Positions 4,833 through 38,619 of a DNA stretch of 58,885 bases are shown here, in pieces (the stretch's first letter is position 1; every line of letters begins with the position of its first letter). The notes under the pieces are model-generated. The model saw only the letters and a list, made by a program, of their open reading frames with translations. It was not told the DNA's origin and did not search any database. Source of the stretch: a virus (lineage: Duplodnaviria > Caudoviricetes); IMG/VR virus record IMGVR_UViG_3300020123_000348, positions 1 to 58,885 of that record; one strand, given 5' to 3'. A program made the position numbers and the translations under genes.

Positions 4833-6548
4833 ATGGCCAAAAAGACCAAAAAACAAATCGAAAAATCTCATCAAGAACTTGATGTAATAAATACATTAGG
4901 AACTTACGATGAATTCATAGCAAAAGCAAACATTGAAAAATCACTAATCTTACAAAATGCACTAAGAGGAAACGACATAGATGCAATTTATAAGGCACAA
5001 CAATACTTAAACAAAAACAAAAGTTCGAATCAACGAACTGATGATGACAGAATAAAAACAATGTTCGTAGATCCAATGTCTACGAATGTTGGTTTAGGCT
5101 ATCAAGACAAGCAGATGAAAATCTCATTTGCTATGTTACGGCAAATGGGAAGAGTACCGGTGATTAAGTCAATTATTGGATTGAGGATTAATCAGATTAC
5201 GAAGTTTGCACAACCTCAGACTGATAAGTATAGCACTGGATTCATCATACGACCAAAAAAGAAAGTGATTGGAGGTGATGGTGAATATAAATTGAGTAAA
5301 GAACAGGAATCTAAAATTAATGACATTACTGAATTCATTCTTAATTGTGGAGTAAATGAAGTTGATCCTTATGCGCACGATGGATTCGAGACTTTTTTAA
5401 CTAAGATAGTGAAGGATAGTTTGGAATTGGATCAGGGATGTTTTCAATTAACTCAAAACATTGCTGGCGATCTGTTCTCATTTGAAGCAGTTGATGGAGC
5501 TACGATAAGAATAGCTGATACATATTTTAAACAATTTGATAATGATTACAAGGAAAAAAATCAACATGAATTAATTGATGACTATTTGCCGTTTTATGTT
5601 CAGATTTATATGAACAAAATTATCAATGAATATCGGCCGTGGGATTTAGCTTTTAATGTTAGAAATCCTCAGACTGATATTTATAAAAATGGATATGGAA
5701 TTTCAGAGTTGGAAGACCTTGTGAGCATTATTACAAACATTTTAAATGCTGATTCATATAATGCTAATTTTTTTAAAATTGGATCTGCACCTAAAGGAAT
5801 TATAAGAGTTAGTGGTAATTTTAATGCTTCAAGACTTGAAGAGTTTAAAAATCAATGGCAGGCGAACATAGCGGGCGTAAGGAATGCTCATCGCACGCCC
5901 GTGATAGAAGCAGAAAAAATGGATTTTATTCAAACAGGTTCTACAAATAGAGACATGGAATATTCGAGATGGTATGAGTTTTTACTAAAGTTAGCTTCAG
6001 CAGTATATGCTTGTGATCCAGCAGAAATAAATTTTCCATTGGGTGGTAGTTCAGAACAAAAAGCCATGTTTGATAGTTCACAAGAATCTAAAATAAAGAA
6101 TAGTAAAGATAAAGGATTAAAACCGTTACTTTCACATATTTCGAGATGGATAAATAAACATATTGTTCAAAAATTAGATAAAGATTTCGAATTTGTTTTT
6201 TGTGGACTTGAATCTGAAGATGCTCAAGCAGAACTTAATGATAATATTATGAAGCTTCAAAACTTCATGAGTTTAAATGAAATTAGGGCTAAATATAAGT
6301 TGAAAGAATTAAGTGAAGAAGATGGTGGTAATATGATTTTGAATCCTTTGCTTTTTCAAATGAAAATGCAAGATAAAATGATGTCTCAACAAAATCCAAA
6401 TGGTCAACAAGAAGAGGATGAAAATCAAGAAGGATATGAAGATGAGAATTACGATCGAAATGATAGAAAGAAAAATCCGTTTGAAAAAGGATTAAAAGTT
6501 GATGAAAAACTTTCTGAAGAAATAAGTAGAATACTTTGTGAAGATTAA
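4833..6548 (+). CDS. Portal protein
   Basis: 571 aa; AVDGATIR, RNPQTD..GYGISELE, FFKIGSAPKG, DMEYSRW, DPAEIN, GLKPLL motifs as in SPO1/Twort-like portals. Confidence 0.93.
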   Translation: MAKKTKKQIEKSHQELDVINTLGTYDEFIAKANIEKSLILQNALRGNDIDAIYKAQQYLNKNKSSNQRTDDDRIKTMFVDPMSTNVGLGYQDKQMKISFAMLRQMGRVPVIKSIIGLRINQITKFAQPQTDKYSTGFIIRPKKKVIGGDGEYKLSKEQESKINDITEFILNCGVNEVDPYAHDGFETFLTKIVKDSLELDQGCFQLTQNIAGDLFSFEAVDGATIRIADTYFKQFDNDYKEKNQHELIDDYLPFYVQIYMNKIINEYRPWDLAFNVRNPQTDIYKNGYGISELEDLVSIITNILNADSYNANFFKIGSAPKGIIRVSGNFNASRLEEFKNQWQANIAGVRNAHRTPVIEAEKMDFIQTGSTNRDMEYSRWYEFLLKLASAVYACDPAEINFPLGGSSEQKAMFDSSQESKIKNSKDKGLKPLLSHISRWINKHIVQKLDKDFEFVFCGLESEDAQAELNDNIMKLQNFMSLNEIRAKYKLKELSEEDGGNMILNPLLFQMKMQDKMMSQQNPNGQQEEDENQEGYEDENYDRNDRKKNPFEKGLKVDEKLSEEISRILCED

Positions 6549-7744: not shown

Positions 7745-8683
7745 ATGTTATTCTCCCAAAAACAGATTGAAGAGTTATTAAAGGTGATTGAAAAAAACAC
7801 TAACATCTTTATAGCAAAGCATATTGGTTCTGAGTATTTGACTCAGGATGAAAAGAAATCTTTAGAAAGTATTGGAATCAATCCAAACAAACTTTATTCA
7901 TTAGAGAGTGATTTGGTAACACAGAGCTTCAATTTTGGGATTTTATCAGATGCTATTGGAAACATCGATTCCAAGAAACTCACATTCGATAATCTTTTGG
8001 ATTATTTCAAACATCAAAAACATATACCACTTTCAGAAATCGACAAAGCTACGATTGAATCAATTAAGCACCAAAGTTTAAGTGACATTCGTGCGAATAA
8101 GGGAAGGATCTTCAACGATGTGAATAATGTGATTTCAAAAGTTGATAAGAATAATCGAGTTGCGTACGAAAAAATAATACGAGATAGAATATTAGAAGGA
8201 ACTTTGAAAAAAGAGTCTGTTGGAACTATTTCTCGTGAACTCGGAATTTTGACAGGAGATTGGAGTAGAAATTTCACAAAATCCATAGAATTCATTTCTC
8301 ATTTAGCGCTTTCAGAAGGACGTCTTTCAATAATTGAGAAACAAAATCCAAATTCCAAAATTTGGATGAGCGTATATGACAAAGCTTGTCCTTCGTGTAT
8401 TAAATTATATTTGACTAAAGGAATCGGTTCAGAGCCCAAATTATTTACGATAAATGAGTTGAAAAATGCTGGCTCAAACATAGGTAGAAAAGTTTCAGAG
8501 TGGAAACCTGTCATACCGCCGTGCCATGTCTATTGTCGTTGTATGATAAACAAATTTCAAATCGGAAGTCAATGGGATCCAAAATTGAAGAGATTCGAAC
8601 TTATCAAACAAGAGAAGCCAAATCGGCCGCTTATACATTTTAGTGTTAAAATAGGAAGTGAACAAAAAGAATATTATGTTTAG
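7745..8683 (+). CDS. Head morphogenesis protein (MuF/SPP1 gp7-like)
   Basis: ACPSC and PPCHVYCRC motifs; located downstream of portal. Confidence 0.8.
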   Translation: MLFSQKQIEELLKVIEKNTNIFIAKHIGSEYLTQDEKKSLESIGINPNKLYSLESDLVTQSFNFGILSDAIGNIDSKKLTFDNLLDYFKHQKHIPLSEIDKATIESIKHQSLSDIRANKGRIFNDVNNVISKVDKNNRVAYEKIIRDRILEGTLKKESVGTISRELGILTGDWSRNFTKSIEFISHLALSEGRLSIIEKQNPNSKIWMSVYDKACPSCIKLYLTKGIGSEPKLFTINELKNAGSNIGRKVSEWKPVIPPCHVYCRCMINKFQIGSQWDPKLKRFELIKQEKPNRPLIHFSVKIGSEQKEYYV

Positions 8684-20511: not shown

Positions 20512-20775
<264 letters not shown>

Positions 20776-22245: not shown

Positions 22246-23817
22246 ATGAAAGATAAGAAAGAACAAAAGAAAGAAAGCATTGAATATTTGAAGAAATCAT
22301 TTGAAGAATTAGGTGTTGATAAGTTCATCATCAAAAATGTTGTAGAAACTGATCTTCAAAAATCGCATAGAATTCTTAGTTTACGACAAAATGGTGAAGA
22401 TGAGATTGAGAAAGGAACTCCAATGGCTTCACATCCTGGATTAATAAAAAAGAAAGTCACTATTCGCATGGGTGGTAAAACGTTTGAAGGTTATCGTTAT
22501 GTGAAATCTGATACTGGAGCCGCTGCAAGTCATCCAAAAGCAAGCAAGGACGTTCAAGAGACAAATAAGAAACAATCAGAGAAAGTTGAAGCAAAAAAGA
22601 AAGTCAAAGATAATCTTGATGAGAATGGAAAACATGGTAACGAAGATGTAAATGATGAAGAAGATAATGAACAAACAAATCCCGAGTTAGTTAATCAGAT
22701 TATCAAGATAGCTCAAACAAAAGGAACTAATGCAAGCAAAGTAAGAGATTTTATTGGTCTTGGCATTTATGACGCTCAATTGATGTTAAGTTTATGTCCA
22801 CAATTAAAAATAGCAGACATTAATTGGTATGGTAAAGAAGCTGGTTTGGATATGAAAGAGTTTCAGAATAATGTTGTTGGTAAAGTGAATGGGTTTTTAG
22901 GAAACATTGGTTCAAATGATAAAAAAGAATCTGTTGAGGAATTGAGAAAAGTAATGAATGATAAGAATTTCCAAAAGCAATTAGAGCAATCTAAAGAAAA
23001 GCGATTGGAAGATCTTGGAATGTCTCCAGATGAGGTGATGAATATGAAATGGGATGCTTATGATTTGAAACTTAAACAACTTATTGTTAAAAGACAAATT
23101 CCATCATTATTAGTTTATGGAACTGGTGGTATTGGTAAAACATTTGGATTATTGAAATCTTTAGAAGCAGCTGGAAAAGTTGCTTGGGATCCAGAGCTTG
23201 ATTTGCAAGCAAATGAATATGATTATGTAAAAATCAATGGAAACACAAATGCTTCAAGTATGTATAATCTTCTTTATGAGAATCCAAATAAGTTGATTAT
23301 ATATGACGATTGTGATTCAATGTGGAATGATCCAGATTCACCAATGGCAAATATGCTAAAAACAGCTTTAGATGGAACTGGTGATAGGATGATAACGTAT
23401 GACAATCCAAAAAAATTAGAAGATGGAACTAAACCTCCAACTAAATTTAAGTTCCACGGTCAAGTGATATTCATAAGTAATTTACCACGAACGGCTTTTC
23501 CAAAACCAATCGTTGACTCAAGAGCATCAGCTTTAGATTTAACTATGACAATGGATCAAACATTAGCTAAATTAAATAAGATAAAGTATGATGTTGAATT
23601 TAAAGATGTTGATAGTAATGAAATAACTGTTGATAAAGAATCAAGAGATGACATTATGAAATTCTTAGAAGAATATAAAGGCGATTTAAGAGTTGAACAA
23701 GTAAATGGAAGAACATTAGCTAATTTAGCTAAAATGAAAGTTCAATTAGTTGAAGATGGAAAAATTTCTCATAAAGATTTTGTAAGACAGGCAATGATAG
23801 ATTTAGATTTAATTTAA
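22246..23817 (+). CDS. AAA+ ATPase with an N-terminal K|S/G-tagged extension (candidate capsid cargo)
   Basis: Walker A GTGGIGKT, Walker B LIIYDDCD, sensor VIFISN; N-terminal LKKS, LQKS, IEKG. Confidence 0.82.
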   Translation: MKDKKEQKKESIEYLKKSFEELGVDKFIIKNVVETDLQKSHRILSLRQNGEDEIEKGTPMASHPGLIKKKVTIRMGGKTFEGYRYVKSDTGAAASHPKASKDVQETNKKQSEKVEAKKKVKDNLDENGKHGNEDVNDEEDNEQTNPELVNQIIKIAQTKGTNASKVRDFIGLGIYDAQLMLSLCPQLKIADINWYGKEAGLDMKEFQNNVVGKVNGFLGNIGSNDKKESVEELRKVMNDKNFQKQLEQSKEKRLEDLGMSPDEVMNMKWDAYDLKLKQLIVKRQIPSLLVYGTGGIGKTFGLLKSLEAAGKVAWDPELDLQANEYDYVKINGNTNASSMYNLLYENPNKLIIYDDCDSMWNDPDSPMANMLKTALDGTGDRMITYDNPKKLEDGTKPPTKFKFHGQVIFISNLPRTAFPKPIVDSRASALDLTMTMDQTLAKLNKIKYDVEFKDVDSNEITVDKESRDDIMKFLEEYKGDLRVEQVNGRTLANLAKMKVQLVEDGKISHKDFVRQAMIDLDLI

Positions 23818-23827
23818 AATTTTAAGA

Positions 23828-24346
23828 ATGGATAACTTAATTGATAAAAAGAAAATATCTGCAAAAGATCTTGAAGGAAATTTTGAAGAACATAAAACTC
23901 AACAGCTTGAAAATTTGCTTCAAGTTTTACTTTCAACAGAACATGATGATGATATAACTGTCAATCTCATTATAGCTGAATTATTGAATCGAGGAATCTC
24001 AAAAGATGAAATCAAAGAGAAATCAAAAGATAAGAAAGTCAAAGATAAAATTGAAAAAGCTTTTGACATTTTAGGAATTGATAAGATTCAAAAAGGAACT
24101 CTGCATAAGACTCATAAATATCTTAAGATAGTTAATGGTCATTATATTTACAAAGAAAATGAGATGACAAGCAAAGACCATTCAGAAGCCGCAAGTCATC
24201 ATAAAATGGAATTTGAAAAGTTGAATAAGACAAATAAAATTGATGAAAAGCATCGTAAGAAACTGAAATATCATCAAGATGTAGCTGACAGGCATGAGAA
24301 GTTGGCAAAAGATAAAATAAAAACAGAAAAACTTTCTAATAAGTAA
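23828..24346 (+). CDS. Candidate internal head protein
   Basis: IEKAFDILGIDKIQKG followed by HKYLKIVNGHYIYKE and a His-rich helical tail. Confidence 0.6.
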   Translation: MDNLIDKKKISAKDLEGNFEEHKTQQLENLLQVLLSTEHDDDITVNLIIAELLNRGISKDEIKEKSKDKKVKDKIEKAFDILGIDKIQKGTLHKTHKYLKIVNGHYIYKENEMTSKDHSEAASHHKMEFEKLNKTNKIDEKHRKKLKYHQDVADRHEKLAKDKIKTEKLSNK

Positions 24347-24348
24347 AA

Positions 24349-27117
24349 ATGAAGCCATTCCCAGCGGGGACAATTCGTGATTGGGAAGGTGGAACTTTCA
24401 TTAAAGCTTGTGAGCCTTCAAAATACAACCATTCAGGTTGGATTCCATTACAAACAAGTCAAGCATTAGAATCAATAGGAAGAGAATGTGATTCATTAGC
24501 AAGTAGTTGTTTAAGTAAGAAAGAACCTATCGCTGGAGAAATCGCACTTGATCACGAAATTGATAACTTTGAAAAAGATGCTAATGGAGATCATCCATAT
24601 ACTGCAAATGACTTTAAGAAATATGAAGGTTTTTATGGTTCAGGAAGATACTCATTTCGTAATGAATTTTCACGAAGATTCATGGCTGAAAAACTTGCGT
24701 TGCAAGAAGCTATCAATAAAGCTTACGATGATGCGATGCCAAGTAATGCTATGAAAGGATTAGATGCAGCTACAAAAAAAGAAATAAGAAATGAAGTCAA
24801 AGCTAATTTCAATTATAATTACGAGCCATTCAAAACAACTCAAGCAAATGAACTGAAAGGAATCATTGAACGCACTAAAAAGCAATTGGATATTGGATTT
24901 AATTTTGAGGGTGAGCAGAAGAAAGTTTATGATGAGGCTTTAAGTGTTGTAAAATCTCTTCCATTAGAATATGATAGAATAGCTAAAAAGCGAAAACAAA
25001 AAGAAGATGCATTAAAAGCAATCAATGAGATTTTCAAAGATAACTGGGGAGCAAGAGAGGCAGTAAAGAAAAAATTAGATGATGCTTATGGAGAATATGT
25101 AAGGAAATTCTCAGATCAAATAAGAGAAGGCGAAGGCAAATCACAAGAAGAGACTTTTGGAGTTACAATTGATGAACCTTATGAAACATTTTATCCAAAG
25201 TTATTTGACAAGATTCAATTAGACAGAAATAAATTCAACAAATATAAAGTTGAAGACATTGAGTTAGATAAATATGAAGGAGAAGAGATTGCTTTAGAAG
25301 GAATTTCATTCATTTTGAAAAAAGATAAAAATGGACATTTATATTTAGTTAGATCTAATCAAATATCTGGAAATCCTAAATTTAATATAGATGCTATTAA
25401 AGACCATGAGCGATTATATCCACAAGGATATTTAGAAATTGATAATCGACTTGAATTACCAGTAAAACAAGGTTTAGTTGATAAGCTAAACATGTTTGAT
25501 TTATTGAGTCAGCATATTGGGGAAGAAATTGAAACTATTACGAATTCCCATTATGGTAAATCAAAAAATATTTATAAAATAAAAAAAGACAAAGAGAATA
25601 AAATTTATTTAGAAGATTTTGTTGGAAACAGAAAAAACTTTAATGAATATTCAAAAACATATAGTGTTGTAGCAGAACAATTACATAAACAATCCAAATC
25701 ATATCCTTTCAATGAACTTCTCTATTTACGTTTTGAAACTTTATATAGTAAACAATTTGATGGTGATTGGAATGAATCGATGTTACCAGTTATTTACAAT
25801 ATCGAAAAGTTATTGAATACATTACCACTAGGGCATGCTATCAATAATGGCGAATTGAATCAAATCACAAATAAAGAATATGGTGACAATAATGGTTATG
25901 CTTGGTATTCATCAAATGAAAGACGAATCAATTTCAGTGACAAAGCGGCGAATGCTTTTTCAATATGGGGAGATTTAAAAGGTTCACAAGAATTCAATTC
26001 AGTTGTTGCTCATGAAATTGGTCATGCTGTAAGTTATAAATTGGGAAGAAAACCTAATTTAAACTATCGTAAATTTGGAAAAGAATGCGGCTGGGATTGG
26101 TCATATTTGAGGCCGTTGGGAGACGATTATATAAAAACAGGAGATCAAAAAGGAGTTGAAAGAACTGGAAGTGAATCTCATCAACCATTATTGACTGCTT
26201 ATGCTGAGACAAGTCCTGAAGAAGCTTTTGCAGAATATTACTCAATCTATGTAAATAACAAAGAAGCCATTGATTCATATTTAGCAACTAACAACAAAGA
26301 ATTCTTATGTAAAGTGAGTAAAATAGTTGCTCAATCAAAACCAGATAGTGATTTGAAAAATGTGAAAGATTATAGTGGTTTTCAGAATAAAGATCAATAT
26401 AAACAAGATAAAGAATGGTTAGCTAATAGAGTAAATAAGAGAACTATTGAAATTCCAAAAGAAATCGAAAATCTTCATTTACAAGATAAGAAAAATTTTG
26501 ATGTTGAATTGATAAATCCTTGGATGGTAAAATTTGACAAAGGAATCAAAGAAGAAGCTGAATATATAAAAACAGGTTTATATAATGCTCGCATAAATGA
26601 ACCTCATCCAATAGTTGTAATTCAAAGCAAAACTAATATATATCATTGTTTGAGATATGAGAATTATTGTATGGCATTCAAGAGAACACATAAAATGGCT
26701 CCGGCATTGATTATAAGTGAAGAAGCGTATTCACAATTAAGTCAAAAATTCACTAAAGAAGAAATCATTGATTATGCTATATATTTTTTAAGAGATCGAA
26801 AAGTACCATTGCAAAATAATGTAGCTAAATTTAAAAAAGGATTAGAATATAGGAATGAAGTTTTAAGTGTTGAAGATCTGGTTCATAATAAAAACCGCTT
26901 TTTAGCAATGAAAAAAATATTTGATTCTCCTTCATTACAAAAAGCTTTAAAAGAATTATTTGGTTTGAATCATCTAAGAGATGTTTTTGCAATCAATCAA
27001 CCAATTCAAGATAATGCATTAGAATTACAGAAAAGTGAGTTGAATAGTATTCTATCGGAATTGGAAGAAAATGCATTAGAGCTTAATCTTGTAATGCGAG
27101 AAATAGATTCTAATTAA
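24349..27117 (+). CDS. Large multidomain protein with a zincin metallopeptidase domain
   Basis: VAHEIGHAV (HExxH at 26011-26025) and YAETSPEEAFAEYY; C-terminal LQKA and LQKS. Confidence 0.78.
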   Translation: MKPFPAGTIRDWEGGTFIKACEPSKYNHSGWIPLQTSQALESIGRECDSLASSCLSKKEPIAGEIALDHEIDNFEKDANGDHPYTANDFKKYEGFYGSGRYSFRNEFSRRFMAEKLALQEAINKAYDDAMPSNAMKGLDAATKKEIRNEVKANFNYNYEPFKTTQANELKGIIERTKKQLDIGFNFEGEQKKVYDEALSVVKSLPLEYDRIAKKRKQKEDALKAINEIFKDNWGAREAVKKKLDDAYGEYVRKFSDQIREGEGKSQEETFGVTIDEPYETFYPKLFDKIQLDRNKFNKYKVEDIELDKYEGEEIALEGISFILKKDKNGHLYLVRSNQISGNPKFNIDAIKDHERLYPQGYLEIDNRLELPVKQGLVDKLNMFDLLSQHIGEEIETITNSHYGKSKNIYKIKKDKENKIYLEDFVGNRKNFNEYSKTYSVVAEQLHKQSKSYPFNELLYLRFETLYSKQFDGDWNESMLPVIYNIEKLLNTLPLGHAINNGELNQITNKEYGDNNGYAWYSSNERRINFSDKAANAFSIWGDLKGSQEFNSVVAHEIGHAVSYKLGRKPNLNYRKFGKECGWDWSYLRPLGDDYIKTGDQKGVERTGSESHQPLLTAYAETSPEEAFAEYYSIYVNNKEAIDSYLATNNKEFLCKVSKIVAQSKPDSDLKNVKDYSGFQNKDQYKQDKEWLANRVNKRTIEIPKEIENLHLQDKKNFDVELINPWMVKFDKGIKEEAEYIKTGLYNARINEPHPIVVIQSKTNIYHCLRYENYCMAFKRTHKMAPALIISEEAYSQLSQKFTKEEIIDYAIYFLRDRKVPLQNNVAKFKKGLEYRNEVLSVEDLVHNKNRFLAMKKIFDSPSLQKALKELFGLNHLRDVFAINQPIQDNALELQKSELNSILSELEENALELNLVMREIDSN

Positions 27118-27134
27118 TTTGTTAGTTTTGCATT

Positions 27135-30100
27135 ATGAATGTACAAGAATCTTTAGAAGTAATTAATCAAGCTTTCAATCAAGGTTTAATAACTGGTGAG
27201 AAATACTTTGAGACTCTTGAAAAAGCTCGTGGTAAAGTAGCTTTTTTAGATGGAACGATTTCAAAGAATGGTTTATATAGAAAAGATTCATCAGCTAAAA
27301 GTGGTTGGACGAAGATTGAAAATAAAAGAAAGAAAAAAGTTGTTGAAGAGAAAAAAGAAAGTAATAGTGAAATATTTATTCCAGAAGGAAAATTTCAATT
27401 AAAAATTAAACCATTAAAGGAAGGAAAAGATCCACTAATAGTTGAAGCAATTTCAGATAATTATGGAAAAGGAATTACAGTTTATATGGATGGAAAAAAT
27501 TATTATTTAACTGGAAAACAAATTCAAAATTTCTTAAAAACAGGAGAATATGAAATTATAAAAAAAGAAATCTCAAAACCTATTCAAGCTAAAAAACTAA
27601 ATGAAGATGATGAAGATGAAAACTTCGACCAAAAAGAACAATTTGAAACTAAAGAGCAATTAAATGAATTTATAAAAAATGGAGACATTACAGAACAGCA
27701 AGTTGAAGAATTCGGACAAAGAACAGAAGAACAAATTACAGAGCTTGAACCAACTATTAAGACTCTTGAAAATGAGACAACTGATCTCACAAGAACGACT
27801 ACGGAGAAACTTAGTAGATTAGATGATCAAATTGATGAGCTTATAAATAGCTCACATAAAGCGACTCCATTATTAGATGCTTATGAAAAGCGATTTGATG
27901 AATTGGATATTGAGACGTCTCATAAAGATCCAGATAAAATTGAAATTGGAGATTATGTAACCACAAAACGAGCTTTCAAAAAAGAGCCAATGAATGGTTT
28001 TGTAACTAAAATAGAAACAAAATCAATTACCATAAAGCATCCAAAAGGTGGTTGGACAGGTGACGAGAATGACTTTAATTTTATTCAGGAACATAAAGTC
28101 TCGAAAACTGATGTTGAGAGTTATTATAAATTGAAGAAGAAAATAAATGTAAATTACAATGATAATATTAGTCTTAATGAAAGTGAAATATCCGAAGATT
28201 CAACTGAATATAAACGAAACAGTGGATCCAAAAGTGAAATACAAAACTTCGAAGAATTTGAAAAAGAGCAATTACCAAGATATGCTGAAAAAGTTAAATC
28301 ATTAATTGAAAAAGTAATTGCTAAAGAATATCTTTCGGATGAAGAAGTTTCAGATTTAGGTTTTAGTATTATTCAATTAAATAAATATCAATATCAAGAT
28401 ATTTCTCAAGATTTTATTTATATTGGAACTTATTTGTCTATTGGGCGAAACAAAATTTTATTCAATAATGAAAAAACAAAAGAAACATTTATAAATAAAG
28501 GAAAAGAGCTTTTAAAACAATATCAAGATAATAATATTCAAAAGTCTGAAGAATGGTTTTTCAATCTCTTAGAACGAAAGAAACAACTGCAAGAACAACT
28601 TATAAACATAGTTGATGCAAATCCAGAATTGATAGATGATGAGATAGTAAAATCTTCAACATTAGATACTTTAGTTCCAGGATTTACAGATAATCTAAAA
28701 GAAGTTCTTCATAAAAATAAAGTCAAAGGAAAACAACATTTCTCAGATGCAATTATCATGAATGACAAAGGAGAAATTCTTATGTTATTTAGAAACATTA
28801 ATAAGAATCCAGAATTATCACATAAATGGTCATTACCAGGAGGACATATTGACAAAGAAGAAAATGCACAAGAAGCATGTATTCGTGAAACTCTTGAAGA
28901 AACAAATTTAGTTGTTGATTCATGTCAATTGTTTTATGTTAAAGAATGTGATAAAGCTATAATTAACTTTTTCAAATGCGTTATTGACTTAAATCAATTA
29001 CCTATTTTAGATGCTATGGAACATTCAAATCTTAAATGGGTGAGCAAAACAGAACTTCAAGATTTAGATTGTATTTATGACTTAAAAGATACGTTGAATA
29101 AATTGGTATTTCCTGATTTAGGTGGATTAGATAAAATTGAAAAAGAAGTTGAAATTGAGGATGATATTGTTAATGAGATAACTAAAGCTCGAAAAGTTGG
29201 AAGTTTAAATAAAGTTCATAAATTTATTAGAAAAGAAAATGGTGAATATATTTATGAAGATAAATTAGAACCAAATGTTCATAATAAAATTGATTGTAAT
29301 GAAGTTTTTGAAAATAAAGTATTTCAAAAAAACATAACAGATTTAATTAAATGGTTTAAAAAAATATTTAATGTTAAAGAGCAACATAATATTCCACTTG
29401 ATAAAAGAAAAGATCTTTGGGATGAAAATAAATTTTGGCAAAAAGATAATTTTATAAATAAATCTTTTATTGAAAAAATAAAACTTGAAAATATTTTTCC
29501 ATCACAAGAATCAACATTTATAGAACCACTTTTAGATAAACTTAATGGTTCTAAAAGTCATAGTACAGATTTACCTTTAGGTTTATTAATTGGAGATACT
29601 GGAAAAGTTTTATTATTTGATGGACATCATAGAATAGTTACTGGAATCATTAAAGGAGAAAAAGAATTTGATATTAAATTAATAAAAGTTGGAACATATC
29701 ATTTTTTTAAATATTTTGATAAGTTTAAAAACGATATTGAAAAATCTGAAATAAGTATCATTTTAAAATCAGTTGATGCTTCAATTTCAATCATTCAAAA
29801 AGCATTTGATGCAGATCAGATTAGTGAAGAAGAATATTTTAATGCACTTAAAAAAGCTCGTCATGCACATCATAAATATTTGAGGATTGAAGGTAAGAAA
29901 TACATCTATAAAGAGAATGAAGGAAAGTTAAAAGTTGATTGGAACAAAGATCTCATAAGTGATGAACAATATTTTCAAGCATTAGAAAAAGCTAAACATA
30001 TTGAAAAACGAATTCATACATCTAAAAAGACTGGAAAAAAATGGTTGGAGAATCATGAGGTTGGAAGTGATGAAGAAGAGAAATTAATTCAAACAAATGG

Positions 30101-31394
30101 CGAACTTGATAATTATGTCGAAGAACTCACTAAAGATAATGTTGAATTAAAATTTGAAGCAGGAGAAAAATCATTGCATCTTAAAATCATTGATGTAAAT
30201 AAAAATAGAAACAAAGGTCTTGGTTCTCAAGTTATGAATAAAGTAATTGAATGGGCAGATAAGAATAAAATCGTTATAGATTTAGTTCCAGCTGGAAGTT
30301 ATATTAATTCAAGAACTTTTCTTATTAATTGGTATAAGAAATTTGGATTTATTGAAAATAGAAAAGAAAATTCAAATGATGATTTTCTTTATATGTATAG
30401 ATTACCAAAACAAAAAGAAGAACCTTCAACTCAACATCAATCATCTCAATTGATAACTTATTTAGAACAACTTTCAACTTTGATGAAAGATAATCCTCAA
30501 CAAAAAGCATTTTTTGATTGGGAGAAAAACAATGCTAAACAAGTGAAAATAGTCTCAACAGCAGAAATACGATTAAAATATCCTAAGATTGATGAATATT
30601 TAAAACAAGAATGGAATCAACCAGAAGTCAAACAATGTTATTCAAATGCAGCTAAATTAGCAACTAATATTGAGAGAGTAGAATATATTGAAGGCATGAT
30701 TTCAATGATGGGAATTCCTATTGATCACGCTTGGAACAAGGTTGGTGATGAATATTTTGACATAACTAAAGATATTGCTTTGAGTGATGCAACAATTTCT
30801 AATGATGAATATCTATCAATCATAGAGTTAGATACAGAAACTACATTAGAATATATGTTAGAAACTCAAGTTTATGGCGGTTATATTCAACAAAAATATA
30901 TGCGAGATAATGGATTAACAAAACCTAAAAGTAAAACATATAAAATAGAGAAAGCTGAAAAGAATAAAAAGATAGAACTTAATCAAAATGAAAAGAAAGA
31001 AAAGAAACTTCAACTTCATGAATATGAAGATGATGACTTAAAATTGCACGCAACAAGAACAAGTGAAAAGCATTTGAAACGAATTATAAGTGAATCATCA
31101 AATCCAAGATTAAGACAATTTGCTCAAGAAGAACTTGATAATCGCGATCCAAAGAAACAAAAAGAAGTAGAAAAAGAAGATAACTTATTTGATTTGATGA
31201 TTAGTGAAGAACCGGATATTAAAAGAGGTCGTAAACCAGAAAGTGAAACGATTCATTTTGAAAAAGAACCACCGAAAGATGTCATTGAAAAACTTCATGA
31301 ACATAGAATCAAATATATGATTGGAACAACAGAAATTGAGGATGAAGAAGAAAAGTTACAAAAAGCTTTAATGTTAGAAATGGAATTAATTTAG
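27135..31394 (+). CDS. Polyvalent protein: NUDIX + ParB-like + GNAT + papain/transglutaminase-like domains
   Basis: Nudix box GHIDKEENAQEACIRETLEETNL (~28840-28910); LFDGHHR (~29620); RNKGLGSQVM..WYKKFGF (~30200-30350); QCYSNA..HAWN..YFDIT (~30630-30770). Confidence 0.82.
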   Translation: MNVQESLEVINQAFNQGLITGEKYFETLEKARGKVAFLDGTISKNGLYRKDSSAKSGWTKIENKRKKKVVEEKKESNSEIFIPEGKFQLKIKPLKEGKDPLIVEAISDNYGKGITVYMDGKNYYLTGKQIQNFLKTGEYEIIKKEISKPIQAKKLNEDDEDENFDQKEQFETKEQLNEFIKNGDITEQQVEEFGQRTEEQITELEPTIKTLENETTDLTRTTTEKLSRLDDQIDELINSSHKATPLLDAYEKRFDELDIETSHKDPDKIEIGDYVTTKRAFKKEPMNGFVTKIETKSITIKHPKGGWTGDENDFNFIQEHKVSKTDVESYYKLKKKINVNYNDNISLNESEISEDSTEYKRNSGSKSEIQNFEEFEKEQLPRYAEKVKSLIEKVIAKEYLSDEEVSDLGFSIIQLNKYQYQDISQDFIYIGTYLSIGRNKILFNNEKTKETFINKGKELLKQYQDNNIQKSEEWFFNLLERKKQLQEQLINIVDANPELIDDEIVKSSTLDTLVPGFTDNLKEVLHKNKVKGKQHFSDAIIMNDKGEILMLFRNINKNPELSHKWSLPGGHIDKEENAQEACIRETLEETNLVVDSCQLFYVKECDKAIINFFKCVIDLNQLPILDAMEHSNLKWVSKTELQDLDCIYDLKDTLNKLVFPDLGGLDKIEKEVEIEDDIVNEITKARKVGSLNKVHKFIRKENGEYIYEDKLEPNVHNKIDCNEVFENKVFQKNITDLIKWFKKIFNVKEQHNIPLDKRKDLWDENKFWQKDNFINKSFIEKIKLENIFPSQESTFIEPLLDKLNGSKSHSTDLPLGLLIGDTGKVLLFDGHHRIVTGIIKGEKEFDIKLIKVGTYHFFKYFDKFKNDIEKSEISIILKSVDASISIIQKAFDADQISEEEYFNALKKARHAHHKYLRIEGKKYIYKENEGKLKVDWNKDLISDEQYFQALEKAKHIEKRIHTSKKTGKKWLENHEVGSDEEEKLIQTNGELDNYVEELTKDNVELKFEAGEKSLHLKIIDVNKNRNKGLGSQVMNKVIEWADKNKIVIDLVPAGSYINSRTFLINWYKKFGFIENRKENSNDDFLYMYRLPKQKEEPSTQHQSSQLITYLEQLSTLMKDNPQQKAFFDWEKNNAKQVKIVSTAEIRLKYPKIDEYLKQEWNQPEVKQCYSNAAKLATNIERVEYIEGMISMMGIPIDHAWNKVGDEYFDITKDIALSDATISNDEYLSIIELDTETTLEYMLETQVYGGYIQQKYMRDNGLTKPKSKTYKIEKAEKNKKIELNQNEKKEKKLQLHEYEDDDLKLHATRTSEKHLKRIISESSNPRLRQFAQEELDNRDPKKQKEVEKEDNLFDLMISEEPDIKRGRKPESETIHFEKEPPKDVIEKLHEHRIKYMIGTTEIEDEEEKLQKALMLEMELI

Positions 31395-31419
31395 TATTTT
31401 TGCAATAAATAAAAAGAAA

Positions 31420-31686
31420 ATGGGGCAGATAATAATTTCAAGTTTAACGAAAGGCGTTGAAGTAATAAGAGAAGATGGCAGTGGTAAAATCTTTGCTAAA
31501 GATACCGTTGAAGCATCTTGGGACATAACTCAAACTATGGTTACTTTAACTAATAGATTTAATGGTAATGTTTTGTTGAAAGCGAATTATAAAAATATAA
31601 CTTTAGGAACCGATGAATCAGACCATGGAGTTTATGATAATGCTCAAGATTTATGTGAAGATCTTGATGCAATATTGAATAAGTAA
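31420..31686 (+). CDS. Hypothetical protein
   Basis: 88 aa behind class B promoter 31392-31404. Confidence 0.6.
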   Translation: MGQIIISSLTKGVEVIREDGSGKIFAKDTVEASWDITQTMVTLTNRFNGNVLLKANYKNITLGTDESDHGVYDNAQDLCEDLDAILNK

Positions 31687-31716
31687 GTGTTTAAAATTTA
31701 GTAATATTTATTTGAA

Positions 31717-31749
31717 GATCCATCTGTGAAAGCAAGTGGATTTTTTTTA
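31717..31749 (+). terminator. Intrinsic terminator
   Basis: GATCCAT-CTGT-GAAA-GCA-A-GTGGATT plus T tract. Confidence 0.65.
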
Positions 31750-31828
31750 TTTAAAATAAAAGTTATTTATTTTTTTAAAAAAGTTGTTACTTAAACTAAA
31801 ATAAGTAATAGTTATTTTTGCAATTGTA

Positions 31829-33592
31829 ATGAGTGATAAAATAAGATTTGGCATACCAATTGACATTATTAAAAGCAAAAATGCTAAAGGTGATGATGTT
31901 TATAAATTTAAAGGATTAGCTTCAACTAATGATAAAGATAATCAAGGAGAAACCTTGTTAGCTAAACAATTTGATTTGAATGATTTTAAAAATGTCAATT
32001 ATAATCATCAAGGTGCAAAAGATGCGAACGCTGTTTTAGGAGAAATTACATCTCATAACTTTGATAGAGCTGGTTTGAATGTCGAAGGAGAATTGTGGGG
32101 AGATATGCCGATGACTCCTGCTGTTGTATCTTTGATGAAACGAAAAGCTAAACAAGGTAAGAAATTGCAACTTTCAGTTGAAGGTCAGGTTTTGCAACGA
32201 GGTGCAAACAAATGTTCAAAATGTGGTAATTCATTAGAAAAATCAAGTGTATGTACTAAATGCAAAGCAAACACTCAAGGATTTAATAAGATAGTGAAAG
32301 CTAAATTAACAGGTGTTGCAGTTACATTGAATCCAATCAATGGTAATACGTTTTGTGATTTGATTGAAAAAGGGATTACTAATAATGAGTGGCTTTATTC
32401 TGATGAAGATGAATTGTTGATGAAAGCCGTTGATACTAAAATGAAAAAAGGAAAATCAATCACTAATGAAAGTGATGATGATGGAGATGATGATATGCAA
32501 ATGAGTGAGAAAGATGATTTGGAGAAATCTAATTGTCCTAAATGTAAAACATTACTTCAAAAAGGACTTTGTTCAAAATGTGGTTATACAATAGAAAAAG
32601 CTATGTCAGCAGGTTCTGATACTGGAACTGATATTACAAATAAGCAATCAAATGGTTCTGCTTTAAAGAAAGAAGATGTTGAAAGTAAAAAGAATTTATC
32701 TAATACTTTAAGTAAGTCTGAAGCTTACTCTACTATCTTTGATTATTTTTACCCTACAATTGATTTTAAAAAAGCTGGTGAAATTTATAAATTAACAGAA
32801 AAAATAAGTAAAATGGAAAAGAAGCCAATTTCAAAGGAAACTTTAAGTAAAGCATTCGAAATAATCGAACTTGCCATTAAAGAAAATGAAAATTCAGAAG
32901 TCAATGAAGCTATTGATTTGATTAAATCAGATTTCAATGATTTAGAAAAATCAGAACAAGTTGAAGAGCTTATAAAAGCAGGATATGATGAAGAAGTAGC
33001 TAACAATGCTGCTGATAAGCATGAAGATGATGAGAAGGATAAGAAAAAGAAGAAGAAACATGTTGCAAAAAAGAAAGATGATGACAATGAAGAAGAGGAA
33101 GATGAAAACTTTGAAAAAGCTTTAGGAGCAATTGAAGAAATTTCAATCAATCAAGATATGAAATTCGGAGCTCTTGGAGTCATTATTAAATCTCAATCCG
33201 AAACAATTGAGAAAATTTCCACTCAATTAGAAGAAACTACTGATGCTTTGAATGAAGCAAAAGAAGTGATTCAAAAATCTTTTGATTTGATTGAGAAAAT
33301 TTCGAAAACTGCAGTTAAATTCAACCGTCCAATTGGTGGAGCAAACGGCGTTGAACGATTTAAAGAAAATAAAGAAAATGGAAACAAGGTTTATAATATC
33401 AATAACAGAATTCAAAAAGCTGAATTGATTCAGACTCTTGATAATTTAAGCAATCTTGGTGGAAAATTCAATGAAGATCTTTTGAAAGCAGCGAGTGATT
33501 TGGAAATCGCCGGTGTTTTTGGAGACAGGAGAATGATTCCATATTTGAAAGATGTTCACAATATTGAAGTTGTAACATCTGATGGTGAGTAA
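31829..33592 (+). CDS. Prohead protease fused to scaffold
   Basis: FKGLAST..DNQGE..NYNH..LSVEG..GVAVTLNPIN HK97/S78-like protease; acidic coiled-coil C-terminus; directly upstream of the capsid gene. Confidence 0.88.
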   Translation: MSDKIRFGIPIDIIKSKNAKGDDVYKFKGLASTNDKDNQGETLLAKQFDLNDFKNVNYNHQGAKDANAVLGEITSHNFDRAGLNVEGELWGDMPMTPAVVSLMKRKAKQGKKLQLSVEGQVLQRGANKCSKCGNSLEKSSVCTKCKANTQGFNKIVKAKLTGVAVTLNPINGNTFCDLIEKGITNNEWLYSDEDELLMKAVDTKMKKGKSITNESDDDGDDDMQMSEKDDLEKSNCPKCKTLLQKGLCSKCGYTIEKAMSAGSDTGTDITNKQSNGSALKKEDVESKKNLSNTLSKSEAYSTIFDYFYPTIDFKKAGEIYKLTEKISKMEKKPISKETLSKAFEIIELAIKENENSEVNEAIDLIKSDFNDLEKSEQVEELIKAGYDEEVANNAADKHEDDEKDKKKKKKHVAKKKDDDNEEEEDENFEKALGAIEEISINQDMKFGALGVIIKSQSETIEKISTQLEETTDALNEAKEVIQKSFDLIEKISKTAVKFNRPIGGANGVERFKENKENGNKVYNINNRIQKAELIQTLDNLSNLGGKFNEDLLKAASDLEIAGVFGDRRMIPYLKDVHNIEVVTSDGE

Positions 33593-33632
33593 TAATAAAA
33601 AATAGTGTATATTAAATTTATATTTAATTAAA

Positions 33633-35132
33633 ATGGGTTCAGAATTTACCTCTTTAGAGGATTACAACAATGGCTTCTCAGATGGGGAAGTTGGAAGCAC
33701 GGCAGAGCTTTTAAAAGCTATGCAAGCAGGACAAATCACAGGTCGTGATACTGCAAATTTAGATTTAACTATTGAGCCTTTGAAAGCTGAATCGTTAGAG
33801 AGAACACTGAAACTCTTAGATTTCAGGACAAAAGACATTCGCTTGTTAAATGCAATGCCTAAAATGACAGCTTACAATACTGTAGAAGAATTTTTGCAAT
33901 TGAAAAGCTATGGTACTGATCGTGGAGGTTTTTACAATGAAGGCGAACTTTCTGATGTTGAAGATTCAACATACGTAAGACGTTCTGAATTGATTAAATA
34001 CATTCAGGTTACAGGTGAAGTTACGTTGCAAGCTCAAATGGTTCATTCATTTATTGATGCTTACAAAAAAGAAGTTGAAAACAAGACAATGTGGGTAATG
34101 CGTAAAGCAAATTCCGCAATGACTAAAGGTGATGCTGATATTGTACCACAACAATTCAATGGTTTATTCAAACAACATGCAAATATCGGATCAGGTGGTG
34201 GTCTTGATTATTTGTATGCTGATTTGGAAACTTATATGACAAGTGATGTTGTCATTGACAAACGTGGAGAATCATTGACTCAGTTCGATATTGAGAATGC
34301 AGCTGTAATTGGCGATGGACATTATGCTACATTTACTGATTTATTTGCTCCAACAAGTGCTATTTCAGCTTTGATTCAAGATTATTTCAAGATTCAAAGA
34401 TTGATTAAAGGAACTAATAATGGAGCAGTTGGTGTTACGATTCCTTCAATTGATACATCGATGGGTAACATTAAATTGTCAAGTGATAAGTTCATGAAAG
34501 CTGATTCTTCAAGACTTTTGACTGATGGGGCAACATCTCCAAAAGCACCAACTATTCCAACAATTTCTTCTCAAGCTATTGAAATAGATTCTCACAGTAA
34601 AGTAACTGCTGCTGACGCAGGTTCTCGTTACTATGCTGTTGCGACTGTAAACCGTTATGGTGAATCTGCTCTTGTTCAAATGTCAGCTTCTGCATTAGCA
34701 ATGGTTGCTGGTTATTCTGCTCAATTAGGATTTGATTACACAAATCAAGTTGGTAGTCCAACTGGTTTCAGAGTATATTCAACAAAGGTTACGACTGCTG
34801 GAGCAAACACTGGATTGAAGTTTTATCCTTTGTTTTATGTTTCAACGGCTCAACGTGCCGCTGGATATGATGGCGCCGCTGCTAATTATGTTTGGGATCG
34901 CGCAAGATTCTTGCCGGGAATGGAACAAGCATTTATGACTCAAATGGATGAGGAAGTAATGTCATTCAAGCAATTAGCTCCAATTTCAAAATTGGATTTG
35001 GCTGTGATTTCGATGAGCAAGCGATTTATTGCATTTAATTTCTGTTGCCCTAATTTATATGCTCCACAAAAGATGGTGAGGTTTGTAAATTGTTCACCAA
35101 CATTGAATGTGTCAGATCCTGATCTTGCGTAA
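33633..35132 (+). CDS. Major capsid protein (SPO1/Twort-like)
   Basis: LLKA maturation-like site, PLKAESLE, NTVEEF, QQFNGL, FN3-like insertion YYAVATVNRYGES, KQLAPISKLDLA; followed by a strong terminator. Confidence 0.92.
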   Translation: MGSEFTSLEDYNNGFSDGEVGSTAELLKAMQAGQITGRDTANLDLTIEPLKAESLERTLKLLDFRTKDIRLLNAMPKMTAYNTVEEFLQLKSYGTDRGGFYNEGELSDVEDSTYVRRSELIKYIQVTGEVTLQAQMVHSFIDAYKKEVENKTMWVMRKANSAMTKGDADIVPQQFNGLFKQHANIGSGGGLDYLYADLETYMTSDVVIDKRGESLTQFDIENAAVIGDGHYATFTDLFAPTSAISALIQDYFKIQRLIKGTNNGAVGVTIPSIDTSMGNIKLSSDKFMKADSSRLLTDGATSPKAPTIPTISSQAIEIDSHSKVTAADAGSRYYAVATVNRYGESALVQMSASALAMVAGYSAQLGFDYTNQVGSPTGFRVYSTKVTTAGANTGLKFYPLFYVSTAQRAAGYDGAAANYVWDRARFLPGMEQAFMTQMDEEVMSFKQLAPISKLDLAVISMSKRFIAFNFCCPNLYAPQKMVRFVNCSPTLNVSDPDLA

Positions 35133-35157
35133 ATTGTAAAATCAATTTAACAATAAG

Positions 35158-35191
35158 AAAGAGTAAGTGTAAAAGCTTACTCTTTTTTTTT
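35158..35191 (+). terminator. Intrinsic terminator after the capsid gene
   Basis: AAAGAGTAAG-tgtaaaag-CTTACTCTTT plus T tract. Confidence 0.85.
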
Positions 35192-37659: not shown

Positions 37660-38619
37660 ATGAGAAAAAATATAACTGACTATCCTGGCCTTGATGATTT
37701 TAAGGATTCAAACATTCAAAAATCTTATTCTACTCAAAGCATTGAAAAAGCTTCAAAAGGTTCTAAAAACAAAGAAGTAAATATTAAAGATATTTCTACA
37801 GCGGCTGAAGATATAAAATATAATGGTGATTATGGTCATCTTTTTTATCATCCAGAAAGAAAAGAAGTTTTTTGGAATGGAGCTGATGGAGATGATGAAA
37901 ATGAAGGATATTCTTCTTGTGATGAAATTAAAAAATTATTAAAAATAGAAGGAGTTAATAAAGTTCATATTGAATCAGAAGCAAATCCAAATTTAGAAGA
38001 TGGTTGGGAAAAAGTAGAGTTTGATAGAAATAAAAATAAAAAGTTTTTAAAAGATAAAAAAGAAAACTCAAACATCAAAAAATCTTCAATAACTGAAACC
38101 GAAGCTTTCAACATCCTCAACATAGATACTGTGAAGGGAGAGAAAGTTATTGTAAAAAAAAATAAAGTTGAAAATAAAGATGAAATTCAAAAATCAGAAA
38201 TCTTCTACGCCTTTAATAGTTCATTATCGGGATTAAAAGAATCAAATTCATCGGGAGCTTTATTATTCAAAAAAACAGGAAGTGAATTAAAGTCATTGGT
38301 GATTGCTAAAAGAGATTCTTTACAAAGTCAATGTAGTGAAATTCAAGAAAAAATCTTAACCGTAAAGACAAAGTTAGAAGAAGCCGGTGTTGAGTTTACA
38401 AAGAACTTCAATAAAATGGAAGCTACTGAAAAGCCAGTTTATTCTTATAATGACACTGATACGACAAAGATGAGTTTGATAAATGAATGGTCAGATTATA
38501 ACTATACTTGTCGCTCAAATAAAGAAGACATGAAGATCTTGAATGTCTTGATAAATAATTTAAGCGATAAAGAAAAATATACTTTGAATGCTCAACAACT
38601 TTCATTGTTAGAAGTTTAA
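37660..38619 (+). CDS. Candidate internal head protein
   Basis: IQKS, IEKA, IKKS, IQKS motifs and EAFNILNID; own class B promoter 37626-37638. Confidence 0.6.
   Translation: MRKNITDYPGLDDFKDSNIQKSYSTQSIEKASKGSKNKEVNIKDISTAAEDIKYNGDYGHLFYHPERKEVFWNGADGDDENEGYSSCDEIKKLLKIEGVNKVHIESEANPNLEDGWEKVEFDRNKNKKFLKDKKENSNIKKSSITETEAFNILNIDTVKGEKVIVKKNKVENKDEIQKSEIFYAFNSSLSGLKESNSSGALLFKKTGSELKSLVIAKRDSLQSQCSEIQEKILTVKTKLEEAGVEFTKNFNKMEATEKPVYSYNDTDTTKMSLINEWSDYNYTCRSNKEDMKILNVLINNLSDKEKYTLNAQQLSLLEV

Follow-up and report, generated by a model that had tools for sequence, protein, structure and literature searches.

A prohead protease motif shared by head proteins and candidate head cargo of a Bacteroidota-type myophage

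The Head Genes and the Candidate Cargo Block

The DNA analysed here (the window) is 58,885 bases long and is the complete record for virus IMGVR_UViG_3300020123_000348. PHROG profiles name three head genes in it, those for the portal protein (4833..6548; phrog_12, E=3.8e-34), a head maturation protease fused to the scaffold (31829..33592; phrog_1028, E=8e-24) and the major head (capsid) protein (33633..35132; phrog_752, E=4.8e-62), and genes for neck, sheath and tail proteins lie downstream of the capsid gene. This report concerns the motif at which the protease is predicted to cut, [ILFM]-x-K|[ASG], and its recurrence in a block of four genes upstream of the protease (22246..23817, 23828..24346, 24349..27117 and 27135..31394), the last of which codes for a 1419 amino acid (aa) protein. 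Three of these genes share a unit made of a motif-bearing leader and a small tag. This suggests a T4-like logic with different chemistry, in which leader-tag cargo would be trimmed by the prohead protease and the 1419 aa protein cut at its domain junctions; we regard that reading as evenly poised between right and wrong. Open reading frames (ORFs) are named below by their first nucleotide, and the head and candidate cargo genes, together with the domains mapped within them, all lie on the + strand.

The GC content is 25–41% across the window, mostly 25–32%, and almost every ORF is on the + strand. Capsid identity is 54% with Chryseobacterium phage MA9V-3 and 37% with Bacteroides phages DAC/SJC, as against 22–30% with several hundred Herelleviridae capsids (629 records matched overall). 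Because of this difference in capsid identity the virus is taken to be a Bacteroidota-type myophage outside Herelleviridae, and its nearest relatives infect Chryseobacterium and Bacteroides, not Firmicutes. By sequence comparison it is a low-GC myophage of a Bacteroidota-phage clade that includes MA9V-3 and Bacteroides phage DAC19, with head genes distantly related to those of Herelleviridae. No terminase was identified among the window ORFs scanned.

The Cleavage Motif in Capsid, Scaffold and Portal Proteins

The N-terminus of the capsid protein reads ELLK28|A29MQAG, as given in a preliminary description of this DNA, with a predicted 28-residue propeptide (33633–33716). In the GenBank record of phage A511 (DQ003638.2), the mat_peptide of the capsid protein begins after residue 23 (K23|S24, ..ALK|SF..); a search of the literature for Herelleviridae cleavage sites returned nothing specific, and the A511 site is that of the GenBank annotation. 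An alignment of five capsid sequences places K28|A29 of the window on K23|S24 of A511, and on ELQK|AMQAG of MA9V-3, ELQK|AMEAG of DAC19 and ALNK|ALEAG of CampHawk, which predicts, by homology with the A511 Cps site, capsid maturation of the Herelleviridae type at a Lys|Ser/Ala bond.

The protease-scaffold protein carries 20 matches to the motif (about 19 by an earlier hand count) where 3.2 are expected (2000 shuffles, p<=0.0005). Related phages show the same excess, with 17 sites against 2.1 expected in the MA9V-3 scaffold, 7 against 1.3 in the DAC19 protease, 9 against 0.94 in the scaffold and 6 against 1.14 in the protease of CampHawk, and 4 against 0.78 in the protease of A511, while three metagenomic relative loci have 16–18 scaffold/protease sites each. 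Motif enrichment of scaffold or protease holds in every relative examined. Nine control motifs (reversed, shifted, K replaced by E, R or N, and other P1' or P3 classes) gave ratios of 0 to 2.4 in scaffolds and in the linkers of the 1419 aa protein, compared with 6.2-, 8.3- and 8.7-fold for the true motif; the exception was [ILFM]xR[ASG] in the window scaffold (2 against 0.34, from just two matches). Lys followed by Ala, Ser or Gly is almost always accompanied by a hydrophobic P3 residue. Helical periodicity was considered as a source of the motif and dropped because the helical, Lys-rich ORFs 35249 (0 against 0.71) and 17914 (1 against 1.75) are not enriched.

An alignment of seven proteases, including those of A511 and CampHawk, has conserved His (NYNH) and Ser (LSVEG) columns. 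The phrog_1028 match and these shared columns place the enzyme among the HK97/T4 gp21-type prohead proteases. A copy of the motif is present in all seven proteases at the positions of window K15, just past the N-terminus, and K181, at the end of the protease domain. In the portal protein, IEKS occurs twice near the N-terminal end and FEKG at K552, where the preliminary description had placed them; the N-terminal site is kept in 6/6 portals of the Bacteroidota-phage clade and the C-terminal one (NPF.K|[GSA]) in 5/6. The proposal of a Lys-specific prohead protease of Herelleviridae type, with its motif at the capsid propeptide, in the scaffold and at the portal ends, is supported by these data, and a specificity of [L/I]-x-K|[S/A/G] with processing of capsid, scaffold and portal is very probable on sequence evidence.

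The window protease has two CxxC..CxxC zinc-ribbon-like inserts (window 32190–32290 and 32520–32590), one after the strand with the catalytic Ser and one after the protease domain, that are absent from the six other aligned proteases. Each contains a motif site (K138 and K245), and their matches to Pfam DZR are subthreshold.

The 1419 aa Protein

The protein encoded by 27135..31394 has 14 motif sites (5.46 expected, p=0.0025 by whole-ORF shuffles). Its domain limits were taken, without regard to the motif, from the segments that match stand-alone homologues locally in a set of 2432 hits. Most securely identified is a NUDIX hydrolase domain (residues 529–661; 28719..29117), which scores 53 bits with Pfam NUDIX (cut-off 21.1). 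It is modelled by AlphaFold2 with a predicted local distance difference test (pLDDT) score above 90, has RppH and MutT NUDIX enzymes as its top Foldseek matches in the PDB, and contains no motif site. A second domain modelled with a pLDDT above 90 (residues 1103–1264; 30441..30926), earlier called papain-like, has Cys, His and Asp residues that are invariant in 35 sequences and likewise lacks internal sites. Eight of the 35 members show weak matches to Pfam YunG, and a profile search of PDB sequences with this Cys-His-Asp domain gave one chance-level match (E=0.094).

Other parts are less well defined. The 'ParB-like' domain (residues 694–861; 29214..29717) is delimited by stand-alone homologues, contains sites K776 and K840, shows a DGHHR motif by eye and has low AlphaFold2 confidence; Pfam searches of sub-segments gave no match for this region, for the N-domain or for the tail, so that the label is not borne out by Pfam. 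The GNAT label fared slightly better, with an Acetyltransf_7 match (E=1.3e-4) below the curated cut-off for residues 985–1096 (30087..30422; phrog_10691), and tblastn matches this segment to internal parts of DarB-like giant proteins encoded by Serratia phage Parlo. The C-terminal domain (residues 1270–1400; 30942..31334) is preceded by IEK1273|A and has a stand-alone homologue (P0209).

Over residues 440–1419, 10 of the 13 sites fall in the 274 linker residues, where 1.27 are expected when shuffling is confined to 20-residue windows (P=0.0002), and the remaining 3 lie inside domains (2.32 expected). The earlier statement that the sites fall mostly between domains is thus upheld; its ordered list of sites was correct as far as it went and left out K455, K776 and K840. 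The AlphaFold2 model, built from 94 aligned sequences, has a mean pLDDT of 67.5 and is confident for the NUDIX, Cys-His-Asp and small C-terminal domains, all three site-free. Foldseek with the 980-residue model returned NUDIX structures only, among the matches listed, and is therefore uninformative on the other domains.

Several junction sites are kept in homologues of 36–47% identity: K506 in 14/20, K907 in 8/10 and K1273 in 12/27 covering homologues, those that keep K1273 being multidomain proteins throughout. K889 is kept in 5/11 and K952 in 4/11, and K870 (0/4) and K1410 (2/17) do not recur. The homologues keep the junction units and exchange the bodies: P0001 carries a Zeta_toxin-like kinase among other inserts, P0002 has His_Phos_1, and P0003 has different bodies again.

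The protein resembles polyvalent proteins in several respects. It combines several unrelated catalytic domains (NUDIX above the cut-off, Cys-His-Asp with invariant residues, GNAT subthreshold and 'ParB-like' by eye), its gene is directly upstream of those for protease-scaffold and capsid, with the portal gene also in the window, and domain architecture differs among its orthologues. Two further domains typical of this class, InPase (PF18823) and PBECR1 (PF18809), occur on relatives that bear the tag described below, not in the window, where the zincin-like domain of 24349 is subthreshold and the MuF-likeness of 7745 is by eye.

A Leader-Tag Cassette and Its Family

At the junctions of the 1419 aa protein there is a recurring unit made of the motif, a short basic or Gly-rich spacer and a beta-hairpin-like motif. 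This cassette, which joins 22246, 23828 and 27135 to a wider family and is the strongest feature of the locus, was missing from the preliminary description. A hidden Markov model (HMM) of the tag, built from 15 copies, finds four copies in 27135: residues 28–69 after LEK30|A (27216..27341; E=1.4e-9), residues 682–716 after ITK684|A (29178..29282; E=6.9e-10), residues 905–933 after LKK907|A (29847..29933; E=5.5e-6) and residues 950–980 after LEK952|A (29982..30074; E=2.7e-7). AlphaFold2 models beta-hairpins at residues 923–935 of the third copy, where a site lies within 6 columns in 8 of 10 covering homologues, and at 956–975 of the fourth. The only other tags in the window are in 23828 (residues 87–118) and 22246 (residues 54–91), and a six-frame scan of the window with the HMM found no more. 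The complete 103-kb genome of MA9V-3 has the tag in four genes only (L001 3379–5016, 5683–6129, 6371–7933 and 14001–14708; 5 copies), all between the portal and protease genes, and its stand-alone NUDIX protein carries one copy at the C-terminal end.

A profile search of 5.8 billion proteins retrieved 58 at E<=0.01, of which 56 were new, the other two being the window's own 24349 (returned as P0011, from a query alignment that included it) and P0001. The canonical form of the tag is LEK|GGKRA.IGE.RTFGGREYIKT.DGWKFHGKGTG.KAQ.H, and identity to the MA9V-3 copy in the 56 proteins is 32–88%, mostly 69–88%. Behind the tag are unrelated bodies, namely topoisomerase IB (Topo-IB), InPase, PBECR1, NUDIX, an intein-split ATPase of the 22246 type, or none known. 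The first tag is at a median of residue 33, and 67 of the 71 tags in these proteins begin with the motif. There are 71 sites in the 1779 residues of their leaders (5.7 expected) and 54 in the 19,674 residues that are neither leader nor tag (91.7 expected), a combination of leader enrichment and body depletion that protease-driven selection would produce. An AlphaFold2 model of a 105-residue member (39 sequences) consists of two leader helices, the second of which ends at the LEK|GG bond, then an 11-residue coil and a three-stranded sheet (pLDDT 87–89).

Among 50,697 deposited phage genomes the canonical tag is found in one record only, that of MA9V-3. Pfam has no family over the tag in the tag-bearing proteins, and precomputed Pfam lists are empty for most of the 58; PHROGs, searched with ten tag proteins, has no family for leader or tag. 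Neither Pfam nor the annotated PHROGs thus have a model of the family. In the ESM Atlas nothing usable matched by features, and template modelling (TM) scores were below 0.4 except in one row, a 53 aa viral protein (TM 0.51).

Two minor features were seen within the family. In P0045, a homologue of 22246 and of MA9V-3 L001_3379, the P-loop is split just after GxxGxGK by a LAGLIDADG-type insert (PF14528, precomputed) that looks like an intein. A further loading signal may exist in the form of a short motif, NRKLGRVG..Y, which was noted by eye both near the N-terminus of a DAC19 head-module protein (L002 14500–16158) and within P0043, a tag protein.

Motif Counts and Leaders in the Other Candidate Cargo Genes

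In whole-ORF shuffles, 4240 is enriched (4 sites against 0.80, p=0.0055), and 22246 (4 against 2.41, p=0.22), 23828 (2 against 0.90, p=0.22), 24349 (6 against 3.71, p=0.16) and 37660 (4 against 1.63, p=0.075) are not significant; none of these whole-ORF p-values, that of 27135 included, would survive correction for the 61 ORFs tested. The other 52 window ORFs have 57 sites against 41.9 expected, a background of 1.36x, and scaled to it 27135 has p~0.02. Of six ORFs earlier said to be clusters of sites, two (27135 and 4240) are enriched, and in the four-gene block, in each member of which sites had been said to cluster, 27135 alone is. The proposed comparison with shuffles does leave the enrichment of the scaffold and of the 27135 linkers standing. 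For the upstream genes the position of the sites is more telling than their number: the same consensus marks capsid, scaffold and the N-terminal parts of the candidate substrates, even where, as in 22246, 23828 and 24349, whole-ORF enrichment fails.

The first gene of the block (22246..23817) specifies a 523 aa protein with a leader (K17, K39 and K56), a tag (E=6.5e-7) and a P-loop NTPase-like body (phrog_1250). Of its four sites, three are within residues 1–60 (post hoc p=0.0055). MA9V-3 L001_3379, a protein with a tag at the N-terminal end, shares 32% identity with the C-terminal half of the window protein. Next is a 172 aa, 20% Lys protein (23828..24346) in which the tag (E=1.7e-7) comes after sites K77 and K89. 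It matches no Pfam or PHROG family and is a candidate internal protein; the suggestion that the block genes all encode enzymes is not supported for it, as these searches showed no enzyme domain. Complex prediction of this protein with the capsid protein and with the scaffold half scored 0.00, with no controls alongside. The third gene (24349..27117) codes for a 922 aa protein with a HEIGH zincin-like motif (Reprolysin_3 and SprT-like matches, both subthreshold) and three sites in its last 95 residues (post hoc p=0.017). Its N-terminus is tag-like by eye, which the local tag HMM does not support (E=4).

Just upstream of the portal gene is 4240..4797, which codes for a 185 aa protein with a cargo-type leader. 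In a pairwise comparison (E=9e-7) its residues 9–61 match the leader of P0056, a tag protein, and the two sites line up; no recognisable tag and no Pfam or PHROG family were found in the 185 aa protein. An 88 aa ORF between the 1419 aa protein and the protease (31420..31686) has 2 sites against 0.26 expected (p=0.02), with no Pfam or PHROG family and no homologue in the relatives. The 319 aa product of 37660..38619 has a leader-like N-terminus (NIQK|SY..IEK|AS) and is a weak candidate, its leader alignment to P0056 being not significant (E=7.6).

Genomic Context

Seven viral-contig loci with a tag protein could be compared, and in five of them the tag genes are between the portal gene and those for protease-scaffold and capsid. 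The NUDIX domain that is fused in the window is a separate gene in the relatives, immediately upstream of the protease gene in MA9V-3 and with one small gene between in DAC19, and these separate genes match the position of the fused domain. From 22246 to 31686 the intergenic gaps are 2–25 nt, and the only + strand terminator-like site found by a terminator scan between 20700 and 35400 is at 35155..35188, an arrangement consistent with a single late transcription unit that stops beyond the capsid gene. A promoter scan gave 68 sigma-70-like sites against 80.5 in shuffles, with a sigma-70 model that does not cover Bacteroidota promoters.

Proposed Pathway and Alternatives

In the pathway that we propose, the prohead protease fused to the scaffold would cut after Lys in [L/I]-x-K|[S/A/G], removing the 28-residue capsid propeptide, cutting the scaffold at about 20 places, trimming both ends of the portal protein and freeing itself. 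The genes between portal and protease would code for cargo proteins of one plan: a short helical leader with one to three sites, a final site (LEK|GGK in canonical form), a basic three-stranded beta-sheet tag and a variable body. The cassette would bring these proteins into the prohead, where the protease would take the leaders off, and the bodies would remain inside with the DNA and exit with it at infection. The 1419 aa protein would represent several cargo genes fused, and because four tag copies and leader-like linkers have been kept at its junctions it would be cut into pieces, namely the N-domain, NUDIX, 'ParB-like', GNAT plus Cys-His-Asp, and the tail.

What the sequences show is how the motif is distributed and conserved, which proteins share the tag, and how genes and domains are arranged; packaging, cleavage at motif bonds and injection are inferred. 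A search for virion proteomics on a relative came up empty, the MA9V-3 paper having no occurrence of 'mass spectrometry' or 'SDS-PAGE'. The parts of the proposal differ in strength. Packaging of the tag proteins in the head is somewhat favoured by the sequence data, and internal cutting of the 1419 aa protein stands a little below an even chance. In the broadest form, the cassette would be the signal by which a large and almost entirely uncultured clade of Bacteroidota myophages generally loads and releases its cargo. Whatever enzyme stood behind the cassette would enter the capsid and be trimmed by the prohead protease, and 27135 would be a true polyprotein of a dsDNA phage, giving at least five injected effectors. 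This is a tentative extension that we would not bet on.

A number of observations weigh against the proposal. Most sites of the 1419 aa protein are modelled in long helices, some of them confident (K889 and K907, pLDDT 83–90), and not in loops, and others are in low-confidence stretches between domains. Between three and five of these sites belong to internal repeats and therefore represent fewer independent events. A motif match does not equal a cut, since the folded capsid protein has 4 extra matches and it is certain that the protease does not use every one. There is kinship among the 56 tag proteins, so that the leader count is not one of 71 independent events, and the search profile itself started with the motif, which biases the figure of 67 in 71; the tags of the window diverge from the canonical form (E 1e-6 to 1e-10) and seeded the HMM. 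Genes 22246, 23828 and 24349 pooled have 12 sites against 9.5 expected when scaled to background (p=0.24), and a 1459 aa head-module protein of MA9V-3 has 1 site against 3.0. In two of the seven loci (L009 and L010) the tag genes are among those for primase, exonuclease and DNA polymerase, so that they are not confined to head modules. Both are partial viral contigs, with the tag-gene pairs (L009 4908–7348 and L010 7047–10377) between the exonuclease and DNA polymerase genes; the L009 record, at about 42% completeness, includes no capsid gene, and the tag-protein leaders of both retain 2–3 motif sites.

The helical setting of the sites is one point in favour of the main alternative reading of the cassette, as a targeting, anchoring or DNA-binding module from which at most the N-terminal leaders are removed, the 1419 aa protein being delivered intact in the manner of the N4 virion RNA polymerase. 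Internal LxK[AGS] copies would then be relics of the leaders of fused genes, or part of the fold of the module. The tag-adjacent sites do belong to a repeated unit (an AFD..IS.EEY helix, LxKA and the hairpin), the sequence past the canonical bond (GGKRA.IGE..) is conserved far beyond the needs of a protease site, and the N4 enzyme, ArdC and TraC1 travel unprocessed, according to PMC5512222. However, the 8.7-fold enrichment in linkers includes sites that are not next to a tag (K455, K470, K506, K870, K878, K1273 and K1410), two of which, K506 and K1273, are kept in divergent homologues, and the distance from site to hairpin ranges between about 3 and 20 residues, which argues against a motif built rigidly into the tag fold. 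Intact delivery is, in our judgement, an unlikely explanation that still deserves to be taken seriously. The location of the L009 and L010 genes, the basic character of the tag and the presence of Topo-IB, NUDIX and P-loop NTPase bodies would suit a nucleic-acid-binding or replication module of intracellular proteins that never enter the virion, their motif resembling that of the protease by coincidence. Coincidence fits poorly with leaders that are 12-fold enriched and bodies that are depleted, with a head-module location of all four tag genes in the complete MA9V-3 genome and all three in the window, and with the occurrence on tag proteins of InPase and PBECR, domains typical of phage-packaged polyvalent proteins according to PMC5512222; a non-virion role is improbable.

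Processing need not be the work of the prohead protease if polyvalent proteins cut themselves by means of their own peptidases, here the zincin-like 24349 and the Cys-His-Asp domain of 27135. Autoproteolysis has been proposed for metallopeptidase-bearing polyvalent proteins (PMC5512222), the HEIGH motif has a counterpart by eye in a zincin-like segment of tag protein P0005, and the Cys, His and Asp residues of the Cys-His-Asp domain are invariant throughout its 35 sequences. Self-processing leaves unexplained why the junction motif is the one found in the capsid propeptide, scaffold and portal, and most tag proteins (about 200–400 aa, without a Pfam domain) have site-rich leaders and no peptidase, while the zincin matches themselves are subthreshold; we think it slightly less probable again than a non-virion role. 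Lastly, Lys-rich helical proteins could yield the motif by composition without selection, as the 1.36x background and the lack of individual enrichment in three of the four block genes might suggest, but local-composition shuffles, the nine control motifs and conservation across phages reject this for scaffold, linkers and leaders, and chance is a very remote explanation.

Relation to Known Systems

The motif of the T4 prohead protease gp21 is L/I-x-E. Head cargo is well known in T4, where an N-terminal capsid targeting sequence loads non-structural proteins into the prohead (PMC9024508) and Alt is packaged in the head (PMC5512222). The proposed scheme resembles that of the T4 internal proteins and Alt in its short signal, in a head protease that cuts at a consensus common to scaffold and capsid, and in cargo that is injected with the DNA. 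It differs in that P1 is Lys and not Glu, in its multi-site leaders and single multi-unit cargo fusion, in being known from sequence alone, and in a beta-sheet tag that lies past the cut and would remain on the product. For giant phages of the SPN3US / phiKZ-like kind, PMC10052503 gives 14 cleavage sites in nine proteins, and there too many head proteins, including the protease, are cut at a common motif. Lineage and motif are different, however, the giant-phage cases come from mass spectrometry, and no shared portable tag is reported in the abstract of that source.

Polyvalent proteins were described by Iyer, Burroughs, Anand, de Souza and Aravind in 2017 as having 2–15 effector domains, shuffled among orthologues, and genes beside virion genes, with a repertoire that includes NUDIX, GNAT, ParB, InPase, PBECR and metallopeptidase domains and with packaging and injection predicted (PMC5512222). 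The multidomain 27135 likewise adjoins virion genes, and its homologues swap domains. Unlike the present proposal, that account has embedded metallopeptidases do the self-processing; its text contains 'linker' and 'papain' in no place and 'prohead protease' once, and the leader-tag cassette of the window is without a Pfam model. In the Dar system of P1, DarB has an N-terminal capsid-targeting signal and DdrB is processed before packaging (PMC9024508 and PMC5512222). The parallel lies in large antirestriction enzymes loaded into the head by an N-terminal signal, and the GNAT-like segment of 27135 matches DarB-like giants, but the signal sequences are dissimilar, P1 loading needs DarA and Hdf, and the parts of these sources available describe no multi-site leaders.

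Herelleviridae such as A511 and the SPO1-like CampHawk have homologous capsid, protease and portal proteins, an aligned maturation bond and the same motif enrichment. In these phages of Firmicutes, unlike in the window, the protease gene directly follows the portal gene, with no cargo genes between. The capsid of crAss001, a Bacteroidota phage, stores proteins that are ejected (PMC10172136). This phage belongs to a podovirus lineage unrelated to that of the window. To our knowledge, no link between crAss001 cargo and a protease motif has been drawn.

Protease-processed head cargo (T4, giant phages and P1) and polyvalent proteins are therefore already known. What appears to be new is a Lys-type motif in a cargo role, an unannotated leader-tag family, and the suggestion of a polyvalent protein cut by the prohead protease and not by itself. 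Literature searches, partial in coverage and confined to main texts without supplements, did not find the leader-tag and prohead-protease cargo scheme in print. If correct, the scheme would be the first sequence-readable rule for head cargo across a clade of Bacteroidota phages, with a cargo including nucleotide-directed enzymes (NUDIX, Topo-IB, InPase and a PBECR-type RNase) that would probably be active very early, within minutes of the start of infection. The scheme would supply a mechanism for cutting polyvalent proteins into working parts, for which the 2017 description proposed self-processing only, and join the polyvalent-protein idea to the capsid-targeting logic of T4, offering a handle for protein delivery into Bacteroidota. 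Direct tests of the idea are feasible in MA9V-3, a cultured phage with four tag genes.

Other Genes in the Window

A conserved head-module protein, possibly MuF/gp7-like, is encoded at 7745..8683 and is 39% identical to MA9V-3 L001_7944 and 29% identical to DAC19 L002_13586. It has a C-terminal PPCH..CRC motif, seen by eye only, which we take to be typical of MuF and SPP1 gp7 minor head proteins; there was no Pfam match to support this. About 13 kb of non-head genes (8764–21965) separate the portal region from the cargo block, an insert with no counterpart in the portal–protease interval of MA9V-3. It includes a glycosyltransferase gene (9227–9895; phrog_26101), a Stealth-CR2-like protein (17914–19725; subthreshold match) and an 81 aa ORF (20530–20775) that resembles acyl carrier protein by eye (DSLD motif).

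Two homing-endonuclease-like genes (phrog_314) are present, one at 6548–7510 abutting the portal gene and the other at 46582–47436, after a 553 aa sheath-like gene. Further downstream of the capsid gene, 40890–43979 codes for a 1029 aa protein that contains collagen-like G-x-T repeats and has an N-terminus resembling a signal peptide, and is probably a tail fibre gene of foreign composition. The local GC content there is 41%, compared with about 28% elsewhere, and this rise accounts for a long antisense ORF at 42470–43498.

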